64,000 nt of DNA. Origin: Candidatus Spyradenecus sp. (GTDB taxonomy: Bacteria; Verrucomicrobiota; Verrucomicrobiia; Opitutales; UBA953). The translations under genes were made by a program, and so were the position numbers. The stretch covers positions 192,001 through 256,000 of the forward strand of contig JAZSKX010000018.1 in assembly GCA_045535075.1 (NCBI GenBank), written 5' to 3'. Of this stretch, positions 1-64,000 are shown one piece after another. The notes under the pieces were generated by a model that worked only from the letters and a program-made list of their open reading frames with translations, had not been told where the DNA came from and ran no database searches. The first letter of the stretch is position 1, and each line of letters begins with the position of its first letter.

Positions 1-125
1 AAATCAACGCTTACGAACGCGTCCGCGGACCGGTTTCGGAACGCAGCAACGCTCCGGCTTCGATGTCCACGAGCACGGGCTCGCAAGATTTTGCGAACCT
101 CGGCGATATTCTCGACAATCTCTAA
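1..125 (+). CDS. rpsA: 3' end of a gene cut by the window edge, probably 30S ribosomal protein S1
   Basis: Frame from nt 3 reads INAYERVRGPVSERSNAPASMSTSTGSQDFANLGDILDNL*. The 'NLGDIL' tail resembles S1 C-termini and a strong terminator follows. Confidence 0.45.
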   Translation, partial: INAYERVRGPVSERSNAPASMSTSTGSQDFANLGDILDNL

Positions 126-144
126 ACCGAGAATTCAATCAAAC

Positions 145-177
145 AAAAAGGCGTTTCCTCGCGGGAACGCCTTTTTT
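145..177 (+). terminator. Intrinsic terminator whose stem contains the motif
   Basis: AAAAAGGCGTTTCC-TCGC-GGGAACGCCTTTTTT hairpin with U tract right after the stop at 125. Confidence 0.8.
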
Positions 178-251
178 ATATTATCAAAGGAAAGACGCTC
201 CGAACCGCAAGGACGCTTGCCTTGCAGCAGGAATGCGGTTTTGATTAACGC

Positions 252-1640
252 ATGCTGATTGAGATTCCCGACAACGAAAAAGTCGCTCTGACCCGCTTTT
301 TTAGCGAAATAAAAAAGCGCGGCGGACAAGCGCTTTTTGTCGGCGGTTGCGTGCGTGATGCGCTTCGCGGCGAGCTCCCAAAAGATTTTGACGTCGAAGT
401 TTACGGCGTTCCCGCAGCAGAAATTGAAGACATTCTACGGGAACAGAAAATTCGTTATAACACTGCAGGTCGTTCTTTCGGAGTCTTTAAGATTCACGAC
501 GCTCCCGTCGATATTGCTCTCCCGCGCCGGGAATCCAAATGCGGTCGCGGGCACACGGGTTTCCGCGTTGAAGGCGATCCGGGAATGCCGCTTGCAGAAG
601 CCGCCGCCCGCCGCGACTTCACCATCAACGCGATTTACTACGATCCTCTCTCCGACAGCATTTCGGATCCGTTTAACGGGCAAAAAGACTTGGAGAAAAA
701 GATTCTCCGTCACACATCTCCGGCGTTTTCAGAAGACCCGTTGCGGGTATTGCGGGCGATGCAATTTCTTGCCCGATTCCGTTTTGAAATTGCGCCGGAA
801 ACGCTCGAACTTTGCAAACGCATTGAACCGGAAGGGCTCTCACGGGAACGCGTTTTCGACGAATGGAAAAAGCTTTTCACAAAAGGCGAAGAGCCTTCCC
901 GCGGCTTAAACTTCCTGCGAGATTGCGGCTGGGTAAAATATTTTCCCCAGTTGGAAGCGTTAATCGGCGTCGAACAAGATCCGTTTTGGCACCCGGAAGG
1001 CGATGTATGGAACCATACACTACGCGCGATGGATGCATTTGCTCGGGAACGCGTCAATGATGATTTTGAAAACATCATCGTCGGGCTTGCGGTGCTTTGC
1101 CACGATTTCGGGAAACCGGCAACAACAGCGCTCGGCGATGACGGCCGCATTCATTCCTATCGACACGAAAGTGCAGGCGTAAAACCCACAATTCGCTTTT
1201 TAAAATCAATGACAGACCAGCGGGAGCTAATCACCGACGTTCCCGTCTTGGTTGAAGCGCACATGCGCCCGCGCGCACTTTTCCTCGCCAATTCCGGCGA
1301 TGCGGCAATTCGGCGTCTTTCCAATACCGTCGGACGCATTGACCGCCTGCTCCGCGTGTGCAAGGCGGATGCACTCGGAAGCCGCTTTCACGAGAGCGAA
1401 GATTTCCGGGAAACGGAACTTTGGCTGACATCGCGCGCCGAAGCCTTAAAAATAAAAGATTCTACGCCCAAACCGCTCGTTCTCGGCAGGCACTTAATCG
1501 CACTCGGCTTGTCGCCGGGAACATACTTTACGGAAATTCTTCGGCATTGTTTTGAAGCACAGCTCGACGGTATTTTTACCGACGAAGCCGGCGGCATTGA
1601 TTTTTTAAAAGGGCTTCTCGAAAAAGAAAAATACCGGTAA
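252..1640 (+). CDS. cca: CCA-adding tRNA nucleotidyltransferase with HD domain
   Basis: [30 protein letters not shown]-domain motifs [10 protein letters not shown] and HDFGK. Confidence 0.88.
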
Positions 1641-1685
1641 TCCTTTCTTGCAACAGCGTTCCCGCGATAGTGTAATTGGAATTCT

Positions 1686-2120
1686 ATGTTACAAGGAATC
1701 TCACCGCTTCTTTCCCCCGAACTGCTCGCCGTGCTTTGCCGCATGGGACACGGCGATGAAATTGTGCTCTCCGATGCACATTTTCCGGCAGAAACCTTCA
1801 ACTCGCGCGTCCTGCGCGCCGACGGAATTCGCGTTCCCGCGTTGCTCGACGCAATTCTTCCGCTTTTTGTGCTCGATCCCTACGTAAAATCGCCCGTCAT
1901 CATGATGGAAGCGGTTCCGGGCGACACGCTGGATCCGGAAGTCGGCAAATCCTACCGGGAAGTCATCGATCGCCGCCGCCCGGGAACGCCGGATTTTGAA
2001 TTGATGGAGCGTTTTGCATTCTACGAACGAGCCAAAAAAGCTTTTGCCGTCGTTGTTACCGGCGAAACCGCCAAATACGGGAACATCATTCTCAAAAAAG
2101 GTGTTACTCCGATTGAATAA
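1686..2120 (+). CDS. fucU: L-fucose mutarotase (RbsD/FucU family)
   Basis: [41 protein letters not shown]. Confidence 0.9.
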
Positions 2121-2148
2121 AACACGACAGTCTTAATTGCACTAAAAA

Positions 2149-2190
2149 CAAGAAGCGTTCCCGCGAATTCATCTTCGGGAACGCTTCTTG
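2149..2190. terminator. Bidirectional terminator built from an inverted motif pair
   Basis: CAAGAAGCGTTCCCG-12 nt-CGGGAACGCTTCTTG, a perfect 15-bp stem between convergent fucU and acp. Confidence 0.8.
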
Positions 2191-62416: not shown

Positions 62417-62422
62417 GCAGAT

Positions 62423-62467
62423 AAAAAAAAATGCCCGAAGCCAAAACGCAATCGCGGACTTCGGGCA
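62423..62467 (-). terminator. Terminator after the RHH-like gene
   Basis: Minus strand TGCCCGAAG...CTTCGGGCA followed by T9. Confidence 0.7.
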
Positions 62468-62481
62468 AATGAAAAAACAAA

Positions 62482-62964
62482 TTAGCGCCGCTTTTTCTTC
62501 GTCGGGCGCGACGGTTTCGCCGAGACGGGCTTTTTCGGGAGAGCCTTAGCGGACTTCGCAGACTTTCCCTTTACCGGCTTAGCAGTCGATTTTTTTGTCG
62601 AGGTCGCCGGTTTCTTCGCTTTCGCGGGAACGCTTCGTTTGCGGGAACCCGTTGCGGCGGCTGACAATTTTTTTGCCGAAATCCGGCTAATATTGCCAAT
62701 CAAAACGCGAACAACATCCGCAAGACTGCGTCCGTTCTGCTTCGCCAACTTTGTCAGCGTAGCCACCGTTTCCGTATCGGCTCGGAACGAGATTTGGCGC
62801 GTTTTTTCCTTCTGAACCTTCAAGCTCACGGAAGATTTTTCTTCAAGCGCCGTGCGCAAAAGCGAACTAAGCGTAGAAATTCCGAATTTTTTCTGAACGG
62901 ATTTTGCTTCTGCGAGAACCTGCTGCGGAAGCACGACGGTAACAAGTTTCTTGGATGATTTCAT
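62482..62964 (-). CDS. Tandem ribbon-helix-helix-like DNA-binding protein with Lys/Ala/Pro-rich (histone H1-like) tail
   Basis: Two strand-helix-helix units (LVTVVLP..LSSLLRTALEE; QISFRAD..SLADVVRVL); tail KAKKPATSTKKSTAKPVKGK... Confidence 0.65.
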   Translation of the reverse strand: MKSSKKLVTVVLPQQVLAEAKSVQKKFGISTLSSLLRTALEEKSSVSLKVQKEKTRQISFRADTETVATLTKLAKQNGRSLADVVRVLIGNISRISAKKLSAAATGSRKRSVPAKAKKPATSTKKSTAKPVKGKSAKSAKALPKKPVSAKPSRPTKKKRR

Positions 62965-62984
62965 TTCGGGTAAATAAATTTTAA

Positions 62985-63899
62985 TTACGCATTAAAAATT
63001 GCCTCCACATAGTTTTCAACCGAAAACGCCTGAAGGTCTTCCGGGCGTTCTCCGAGCCCGACAAAATAAATAGGGATGCGCAACTCACGCCAAATTCCGA
63101 CAAGCGCCCCGCCGCGGGAAGTCCCGTCAAGCTTTGTAATAATTAAACCCGTGAGATTAAAAGCTTCATGAAAAATGCGAGCCTGCTCAATCGAGTTGGA
63201 GCCGAGCGTCCCGTCTATAACCAACCAGCGATGGTGCGGTGCGGAAGCATCCAGTTTCCCGACAACACGGGAAATTTTTTTCAATTCTTCGAGAAGATTA
63301 CTTTTTGTATGCAAGCGCCCTGCCGTATCGAGAATTGCCACATCCTTTTGCCGTGCTTTCGCCGCCTGAACCGTATCAAACGCGACTGCAGCGGAATCCG
63401 CTCCGTGCCTTCCGGGAACGAGTTCTATCGCAAGTCGTTCCGCCCAAGCGCTTATCTGTTCATTCGCGGCAGCACGAAACGTATCACACGCGCCGAGAAG
63501 CACCTGCTTCCCTTCTTGCATAAAGCGGTACGCCAATTTTGCGGCTGTCGTCGTCTTTCCGGCTCCGTTGACTCCGACGAGAGCAATCACTTCCGGCTTA
63601 TTTTCGCCTTGATCGGAAAGCATTCCCGCAGCGCCGTCAAGAATCTGCACAAGGACGCGCCGTCCGATTTCTGCGGCATCCTTCCCGTGAAGTTCTTTAT
63701 TTTTGGCATAGGCTTTTTTGATTTCCGCCATGATTTCGTCCGCCGTTTCAACTCCGAAATCCGCGCCGTAAAGCGCTTCTTCCAATTCGTCAATGGACGC
63801 GGCATCGAGTTTTTTGGAAAAAATCCCGCCGATTGCGCTAAACAGGCGTGCTGTTTTTTTAAAGCCGTCCTTAAATTTCTGAAAAATAGAAGCGAACAT
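62985..63899 (-). CDS. ftsY: SRP receptor FtsY (no acidic A domain)
   Basis: GVNGAGKTT, DTFRAAA, DTAGR, TKLDG, GLGE. Confidence 0.97.
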   Translation of the reverse strand: MFASIFQKFKDGFKKTARLFSAIGGIFSKKLDAASIDELEEALYGADFGVETADEIMAEIKKAYAKNKELHGKDAAEIGRRVLVQILDGAAGMLSDQGENKPEVIALVGVNGAGKTTTAAKLAYRFMQEGKQVLLGACDTFRAAANEQISAWAERLAIELVPGRHGADSAAVAFDTVQAAKARQKDVAILDTAGRLHTKSNLLEELKKISRVVGKLDASAPHHRWLVIDGTLGSNSIEQARIFHEAFNLTGLIITKLDGTSRGGALVGIWRELRIPIYFVGLGERPEDLQAFSVENYVEAIFNA

Positions 63900-63956
63900 T
63901 TGTAATTTGTTTTTAACGACATTCCGGATTCCCGAGGAGGAACCGCGACGGATGGT

Positions 63957-64000
63957 TTATTGAGCCGTTCTCAGCGGACGGGAAAGGTGTTTTTTGATTC
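63957..64000 (-). CDS. 3' end of a gene cut by the window edge, possibly nusB
   Basis: Reads ...IKKHLSRPLRTAQ*; identity guessed from a short tail and its position upstream of ftsY. Confidence 0.3.
   Translation of the reverse strand, partial: IKKHLSRPLRTAQ

Follow-up and report, generated by a model that had tools for sequence, protein, structure and literature searches.

The window analysed here is a stretch of 64,000 bases from Candidatus Spyradenecus sp. (G000:C5:192001-256000). It belongs to a genome, termed G000, of 1,949,087 bases in 18 contigs with a GC content of 0.52. A short repeated word, (g)CGTTCCCG(Y), is spread over both strands of the window (1..64000), in the spacers as well as in genes of either orientation. 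Its 7-mer, GTTCCCG (CGGGAAC on the opposite strand), was found 185 times, with 103 copies on the + strand and 82 on the - strand; there are 142 copies of the 8-mer CGTTCCCG and 36 of the 10-mer GCGTTCCCGC. A first-pass annotation of the window, which proposed the word as a DNA uptake sequence, had given about 180 copies, about 100 versus 80 by orientation, and our recount agrees well with these figures. The same annotation expected about 8 copies by chance, which was too low: 100 dinucleotide-preserving shuffles of the window gave a mean of 12.8, or about 13 (standard deviation 3.5, maximum 23). The base preceding the 7-mer is C in 142 of the 185 copies, and the base following it is C in 99 and T in 52.

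Across G000 as a whole, the 7-mer occurs 6,528 times, CGTTCCCG 5,159 times, CGTTCCCGC 3,244 times and GCGTTCCCGC 1,614 times, the last against an expectation of about 4.6. Counted with its reverse complement CGGGAACG, CGTTCCCG is the top-ranking 8-mer of the genome, at 2.65 copies per kb and 2.1% of the bases; the runner-up among unrelated 8-mers has 1,228 copies. The observed/expected ratios of CGTTCCCG are 74.9, 28.2, 19.2 and 8.8 for Markov models of orders 0, 1, 2 and 3, respectively. A sequence logo derived from 6,527 genomic copies reads g-C-G-T-T-C-C-C-G-Y-g, with C 5' to the 7-mer in 79% of copies and either C (62%) or T (24%) 3' to it. Information in the logo is limited to about 10 positions, with none more than 2 bases outward on either side. 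Given these flat flanks, CGTTCCCG is a short word and not a piece of a longer repeat. Single-mismatch variants of the 10-mer are graded by position: those altered at the outer positions are found at 104-140 times expectation, those changed at positions 4, 7 and 8 at only 0-7 times. The word is non-palindromic. Distances from copy to copy are near exponential, with a mean of 373 bases, a median of 262 and a coefficient of variation (CV) of 1.10, plus a tail of long gaps.

Coding context, hairpins and motif-free DNA

Gene calls were made with a crude open reading frame (ORF) caller of our own, which returned 1,505 ORFs of at least 100 amino acids covering 90.4% of G000. Single copies within genes account for 86% of all CGTTCCCG copies, and 724 of the 5,159 (14.0%) lie outside ORFs or at an ORF edge, compared with 9.6% of the DNA being non-coding. 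None of the six readings of CGTTCCCG contains a stop codon, so that the word is able to sit in any frame. All six are in fact occupied (xGT, 1,444 copies; xVPx, 1,158; xGNx, 761; RER, 418; RSR, 357; xFP, 297), and genome-wide, as first reported for the window, the word is found in genes in every frame and in spacers.

The preference for two of these frames, xGT and xVPx, might suggest that codon usage, the amino-acid content of the proteins or base composition gave rise to the word as a by-product. Within coding sequences (CDS), however, 4,441 copies of CGTTCCCG were observed against 505 after synonymous-codon shuffling within genes (standard deviation 17, largest 532) and 164 after codon-order shuffling (standard deviation 17), with 20 runs of each kind; the observed count is thus 9-fold and 27-fold higher, respectively. 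Correction for codon usage and amino-acid content had been set beforehand as a refuting test for the uptake proposal, and the enrichment persists after it. Because the excess survives both kinds of shuffle, it belongs to the DNA itself and stems neither from the proteins nor from codon usage. Also against a by-product are the abundance of the word at GC contents from 0.46 to 0.65 and its absence from sister genera, described below, and we give this explanation practically no weight.

Strand preference is slight. Taken over the 80 20-kb bins in which GC skew is clear, the G-rich strand carries CGGGAACG 2,325 times and CGTTCCCG 1,902 times, a ratio of 55:45. The coding strand prefers CGGGAACG by 59:41 and about 57% of genes are co-oriented; by our arithmetic, gene-strand bias, this coding-strand preference and GC skew account for the polarity. 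Strong replichore polarity, which the first-pass annotation had named as a possible sign of a Chi- or KOPS-like word, is exhibited in G000 by GCAGGGCG, the most skewed of the frequent 8-mers, at 141:18 toward the G-rich, presumed leading strand. GCAGGGCG is a candidate KOPS- or Chi-like polar word. Such words thus exist in this genome, and CGTTCCCG is not one of them.

When neighbouring copies no more than 30 bases apart were compared in G000, 181 were arranged as CGTTCCCG...CGGGAACG and 31 in the reversed arrangement. With loops of up to 25 bases, 187 pairs of the form CGTTCCCG-loop-CGGGAACG were found, of which 136 lie outside CDS interiors; the modal loop is 12 bases (53 pairs) and the usual form of the pair is AAAAAGCGTTCCCGYG-loop-CRCGGGAACGCTTTTT. 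Our own scan for terminators, a crude one in which two-way hairpins are counted twice, found 511 candidates consisting of a perfect hairpin and a T-run. Of these, 406 are intergenic, and the word lies in the stem of 192 of the 406 (47%). Three inverted pairs are located in the window. The pair AAAAAAGCGTTCCCGCG-loop-CACGGGAACGC at 19717..19746 has the pattern of a terminator-type hairpin, and similar ones are found at many places in five relatives. At 33167..33193, the pair AAAAAGGCGTTCCCGC-loop-CGGGAACGCCTTTTTT forms a two-way terminator-like hairpin with convergent genes on either side. The third, CGTTCCCG and CGGGAACG separated by 12 nt at 2156..2183, lies downstream of an RbsD/FucU-like gene and has an A-run upstream and no clear T-run after it, which makes it the least convincing terminator candidate of the three.

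G000 contains 12 motif gaps of at least 3.5 kb. All were examined with Pfam scans, and most proved to be prophage, restriction-modification or defence DNA. They include a Mu-like prophage (G000:C8:20500-32000) with Gam, an AAA_22 protein and a C5 methylase; a second prophage (G000:C16:191500-221500) with head-protease-like and tail-fibre-like genes and a D12 methylase; and a defence island (G000:C16:147000-153300) with TIR and PD-(D/E)XK. A restriction-modification/Abi island (G000:C12:44300-49300) contains a C5 methylase, an NgoBV-type endonuclease, an AbiEii-like ATPase and a HpaII endonuclease fragment, and a further island (G000:C2:18300-22400) has a reverse transcriptase and a T5orf172 protein and adjoins an MmeI-like enzyme. 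The other long gaps are a frame of 1353 amino acids without a family match, the small contig C18 (ddrB-ParB and AllG matches) and rpoB.

One motif-free island lies in the window, at 37383..42755 (-), and spans 5,373 bases with a GC content of 0.42-0.44; the first-pass annotation had described it as foreign and free of the word, and no copy was found there. It holds a single gene, at 37513-42339 (-), which encodes a protein of 1608 amino acids with a DEAD/Helicase_C module fused to a UvrD-type helicase module. The island is probably recently acquired, defence-like (or repair) DNA. A motif-poor stretch at 53197..56374 (-), with 3,178 bases lacking the 7-mer, is of another kind, as it consists of rpoB and its downstream spacer. 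The density of the word in the rpoB, rpoC, L10, L1, L11 and nusG genes of the window is 0-1.7 per kb. This points to constraint rather than foreign origin; low density can thus mean strong constraint. No motif-saturated phage was found: 30 viral contigs had one inverted pair each and at most 0.7 copies per kb.

Abundance in resident DNA and absence from prophages and defence islands would also be expected of a word bound by some abundant protein of the chromosome, or of a self mark for a recombination or defence system, Chi-like but without orientation. The conservation of sites between species, described below, is in keeping with this as well. Several observations point the other way. The polarity of 55:45 is explained by gene-strand bias and GC skew, and a separate, strongly polar word is present in the same genome. 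With one copy per 373 bases, CGTTCCCG greatly exceeds the known Chi and KOPS words in density, and prophages without the word persist. Terminator stems built from the word are a trait of the DNA uptake sequences (DUS) and uptake signal sequences (USS) of transformable bacteria; we know of no architectural word that builds them. We therefore consider a binding word or self mark improbable.

Distribution, upkeep and decay within the genus

The 10-mer GCGTTCCCGC is present in all 18 other genomes of the genus, at 138-3,301 copies compared with 8-35 for a reversed-word control. It is at control level in 102 genomes from four sister genera (largest 64 versus control 46), in 12 genomes from 12 other families of the order and in 200 additional genomes representing 109 genera of the class (largest 99 versus control 57). 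These sets amount to 313 genomes outside the genus, as one (G027) appears in two of them; they are samples, and related genomes are not independent of one another. The nearest named records, found by ComEC, are Candidatus Spyradosoma sp. (Verrucomicrobiota, Opitutia), in which two loci have 3.1 and 3.6 copies per kb at GC contents of 0.64-0.65. Sampled loci across the genus have GC contents of 0.46-0.62. The word is thus abundant from 0.46 to 0.65, independently of base composition. The literature on the motif words, on Spyradosoma and on uptake sequences or transformation in Verrucomicrobia, covered as titles and the beginnings of abstracts and for the transformation topic only in part, contained no description of the element.

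The genus comprises 15 high-density and 4 low-density genomes (G001, G002, G013 and G014). Sampled loci of the other 14 high-density genomes have about 2-4 copies per kb; samples of G001, G002 and G013 have the same word at 0.5 per kb, with no replacement word. One word serves the whole genus and no dialects were seen. The survey of related genomes proposed in the first-pass annotation found the same motif in 18 of 18 within the genus. A putative dialect in a sister genus, CGTACCCG, was considered and rejected: 32 copies were found in 60 kb of G031, but genome-wide there are 163 versus 141 for its control, and in 120 of the 121 genomes sampled from the family, all except G001, it does not exceed its control. 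In most high-density genomes of the genus, CGTACCCG is far below its reversed control (1 versus 83 in G003, 1 versus 77 in G006), a depletion not seen in G001, G002 and G013. The 60-kb sample of G031 also has a local, not genome-wide, excess of the words CGTACCCG, TACCCGTG and GAGCGTACC, which probably reflects a repetitive gene family. In the 60-kb sample of G013, palindromic words like ATTTCTCCGGAGAAAT are enriched (10-14 copies); these may be another repeated hairpin.

A tree of the single protein RpoB was made with FastTree (39 rows; G017, whose RpoB is divided between contigs, was not included). It places the genus as one clade with support 100, beside two sister genera. One subclade consists of nine genomes, all of high density. 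The other has the branching ((G009,G008),(G014,((G018,G004),(G000,(G001,G013,G002))))), and the 10-mer counts in it are 2,915 for G009, 1,591 for G008, 138 for G014, 3,036 for G018, 2,112 for G004, 1,614 for G000, 334 for G001, 341 for G013 and 318 for G002. The most parsimonious interpretation is a single origin on the stem lineage of the genus followed by two decays, one in G014 and one in the clade of G001, G002 and G013. RpoB is 92-98% identical to that of G000 among close relatives that keep the motif or no longer maintain it.

Conservation of individual sites was analysed by aligning positions 1-20000 of the window, 20 kb only, to the orthologous pieces of five relatives. In the high-density genomes G018 and G004, motif sites were identical in 22 of 35 (63%) and 20 of 35 (57%) cases, against 14.9% and 15.1% of other 8-mers (p = 1.5e-10 and p = 1.3e-8, respectively). 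In the low-density genomes, the corresponding values were 10 of 56 (18%) against 21.6% for G001, 11 of 57 (19%) against 22.4% for G013 and 2 of 25 (8%) against 13.1% for G014, none of them significant; in these lineages, sites decay at the neutral rate. The word is thus kept at orthologous sites between species of widely differing GC content by a DNA-level force that operates in most species and is off in two lineages. It is this force, acting on the DNA itself, that holds a short non-palindromic word at thousands of copies.

Orthologous sites that are not conserved are of equal length and differ mostly by one or two substitutions (range 1-3), with insertions or deletions confined to 4 of 56 and 3 of 57 sites. 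Copies therefore arise and vanish in place by point change. Gain is by point substitution, often at synonymous sites; a recurrent site variant, CGTCCCCG, is synonymous in the two main frames. This mode of origin bears on the possibility that the word is the core of a small mobile or repeated element of the repetitive extragenic palindrome (REP) or miniature inverted-repeat transposable element (MITE) type. Inverted pairs in spacers do resemble REP hairpins, but the equal length of orthologous sites shows that copies arise in place; moreover, there is no flank information beyond about 2 bases on either side, and 86% of copies are single and inside genes. We judge a mobile element to be very improbable.

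Site conservation and neutral decay show only that a force acts at the level of the DNA. This force might have nothing to do with uptake and come from an intracellular process that recognizes the sequence, for instance gene conversion, or mismatch repair that is biased by methylation or in some other way, as one may envisage for HIP1, the hyperabundant octamer of cyanobacteria. The depletion of CGTACCCG, a near-match, in high-density genomes fits conversion of near-matches to matches, and uptake genes are intact where the motif decays (see below). The abundance of HIP1 follows that of cognate methyltransferases (PMC4390886). For CGTTCCCG, however, no methyltransferase was found that tracks the motif in a survey of five families (PF00145, PF01555, PF02384, MmeI-like and PF02086), so that the concern of the first-pass annotation that the word could be a simple methylation target gained no support there. 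Both C5 methyltransferase genes of G000 lie within motif-free islands, and the D12 methylase within a prophage. No N6_N4_Mtase match was obtained in G000. The MmeI-like enzyme is found in 9 of the 19 genomes of the genus; the densest, G003, G006 and G009, lack it. The remaining N6_Mtase matches are three HsdM-like genes, whose products, being type I enzymes, would be expected to read split sites. The word is, furthermore, not palindromic. Short-patch repair of the Vsr type was also considered and rejected, Vsr being present in 1 of 19 genomes of the genus and not in G000. On balance, an internal process of this kind appears unlikely, less so than a binding word or self mark.

Uptake genes and proposed function

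Homologs of genes for DNA uptake through a type IV pilus, for which the first-pass annotation had proposed a search, were found in G000. PilB/GspE (two copies), PilT/PilU (435 bits, cut-off 319) and PilC/GspF are encoded in one cluster. The single secretin is closest to the Akkermansia Amuc_1098 family, scoring below the cut-off of that family. ComEC has 570 amino acids and matches the Competence domain, and DprA is also present. Seven prepilins were recognized, four of them clustered at G000:C1:259100-262397 between RluF-like and RuvX genes; the proteins of this cluster weakly resemble proteins B, C and D of the Verru_Chthon cassette. Of 9 relatives, 7 have the same pilin-RuvX arrangement (RuvX was not found at the G009 locus, and the G004 locus runs into a contig end). 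All four pilin genes are in place in 8 of the 9 genomes viewed, the cluster of the ninth being truncated where its contig ends. Each of the 19 genomes of the genus has ComEC, the pilins C1_d and C5, the PilT core and the secretin.

ComEC is only 63-64% identical between G000 and G001, G002 and G013, though RpoB is 98% identical; it is by far the fastest-evolving of the proteins compared.

By analogy with systems in other bacteria, we propose that (g)CGTTCCCG(Y) is a genus-specific tag of self DNA of the DUS/USS kind. Uptake is the best-supported of the functions considered here, and we give it about an even chance. To our knowledge, DUS, USS and HIP1 are the examples of words with this density and distribution, and all are proven or proposed transformation signals. 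This link of all three to transformation, together with the terminator pairs and the set of pilus, ComEC and DprA genes, is the reason for placing uptake first, ahead of a HIP1-like internal process, with a protein-binding word or self mark third. In the mechanism envisaged, word-bearing DNA would be bound outside the cell by a protein of the type IV pilus route, located at the surface or in the periplasm; the putative receptor may be a minor pilin, as suggested by ComP and ComN. PilT would then pull the pilus back through the secretin, ComEC would pass one strand inward, and DprA and RecA would recombine that strand with the chromosome. If fragments bearing the word were taken up more often, alleles with the word would replace alleles without it, a form of molecular drive. 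The word would be expected to build up wherever the proteins tolerate it, and as pairs in terminator stems, and newly acquired DNA would be without it.

Several observations weigh against an uptake function. ComEA was not found in G000, the sole HHH_3 matches being Tex and DnaE. In Pfam scans, N_methyl was the only family to score above threshold for the seven prepilins, and ComP_DUS matched none of them. The pilus genes are similar to those of the Akkermansia Amuc_1098/1100 cluster, and the G000 pilus may serve adhesion. Even spacing of CGTTCCCG is not seen in G000, where spacing is approximately random (CV 1.10). The named relatives are Candidatus taxa, some of them represented by metagenome bins. 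The low-density genomes G001, G002, G013 and G014 keep apparently intact ComEC, PilT core, secretin, pilin C5 and the four-gene minor-pilin cluster. It should be noted that the stop codons seen in one of the uptake-gene comparisons are confined to the over-long N-terminal part of the query, in high- and low-density genomes alike. Loss of uptake genes was therefore rejected as the cause of low density, as no loss was found among those tested; the decay of the motif is not explained in this way, and the result counts against the simplest form of an uptake function. The proposal of sequence-specific transformation made in the first-pass annotation thus holds in part: hallmarks of DUS and USS, namely terminator pairs, absence from prophages and defence islands, and genus-wide sharing with conservation of sites, are present, while no ComEA or ComP-type receptor was found and the tested uptake genes are intact where the motif decays. 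Those of its refuting conditions that sequence data can address all came out on the side of the proposal.

A more specific version of the uptake proposal would accommodate these intact genes. The word may be an independently evolved tag for uptake of self DNA, the first in Verrucomicrobiota; its receptor would be unrelated to ComP, and specificity would reside in a module that is separable from the uptake machine and was switched off twice while pilus, ComEC and secretin remained intact. We offer this version tentatively and rate its chances as somewhat less than even. If it is true, the gene responsible should be findable by comparing the 15 high-density genomes with the 4 low-density ones.

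Two proteobacterial families provide the well-established cases of sequence-biased uptake, and HIP1 of cyanobacteria has recently become a candidate. A tag in this genus would, if confirmed, be the third or fourth independent case, and would indicate that self-recognizing transformation evolves repeatedly and shapes about 2% of a genome, including its proteins and terminators. The genus is a natural experiment with its own controls, in which the driver of such words is testable by comparative genomics. The word is also a sharp marker for resident versus acquired DNA and for metagenome binning of the genus, and it may aid the design of DNA for genetic work on these bacteria.

One other feature of the window was noted. 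The gene at 13375-14358 encodes a C-terminal tail, IPEPSAFGLFAGTLALLSALRRRKRT, at 14279-14328 (+), and this stretch matches dozens of places in the five relatives. The tail resembles a PEP-CTERM sorting tail.

Comparison with known systems

Like CGTTCCCG, Chi and KOPS words are over-represented 8-mers of resident DNA. In contrast to it, they are strongly skewed to one replichore strand and much sparser; CGTTCCCG is distributed 55:45 and occurs every 373 bases.

Cyanobacterial HIP1 (GCGATCGC) is nearer in abundance. It is present at 300-2,700 copies per Mb with observed/expected ratios of 55-228 (PMC4390886); the values for CGTTCCCG in G000 are 2,647 per Mb and 75. HIP1 sites are conserved beyond background, and low-frequency exception lineages occur within the clade (PMC4390886), as is the case here. 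HIP1 differs in being palindromic, in being tied to the orphan methyltransferases DmtA and DmtC and in spanning a phylum; CGTTCCCG is non-palindromic, has no methyltransferase partner that we could find and is confined to one genus among those searched. A recent proposal makes HIP1 an uptake sequence that works through methylation (PMC13756078). The first-pass annotation had stated that no such system was described outside two proteobacterial families, and that statement is dated by this proposal.

Words of the DUS and USS type are 9-10 nt long, number hundreds to thousands of copies and make up as much as about 2% of the chromosome; they form inverted repeats in terminators, show frame bias in genes and are absent from recently acquired genes (10.1101/2025.10.24.684340). 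The DUS of the Neisseriaceae, with its receptor ComP, resembles CGTTCCCG in being a short non-palindromic word whose copies number in the thousands and lie on both strands, inside genes and between them. It likewise forms inverted pairs in terminator stems, is missing from recent acquisitions, is common to related species and occupies about 2% of the chromosome. The sequence of CGTTCCCG is unrelated and belongs to another phylum, neither a ComP_DUS-type pilin nor ComEA was found with it, and no dialects were seen within the genus. The share in terminators also differs: about half of the sequences termed DUES lie in terminators (10.1101/2025.10.24.684340), compared with only 14% of CGTTCCCG copies being intergenic at all.

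The USS of the Pasteurellaceae, for which ComN/PpdA is the predicted receptor, is similar to CGTTCCCG in being mostly intragenic and frame-biased, in its graded tolerance of mismatches around a strict core and in its terminator pairs. CGTTCCCG differs in having a core of 8 bases without AT-rich flanking segments. The density of USS is lower than the 2.65 per kb of CGTTCCCG in G000. If the more specific version of the uptake proposal is correct, which we put at somewhat less than an even chance, the word of this genus would be among the densest tags known, at 2.6 copies per kb and more in the sampled loci of some relatives.

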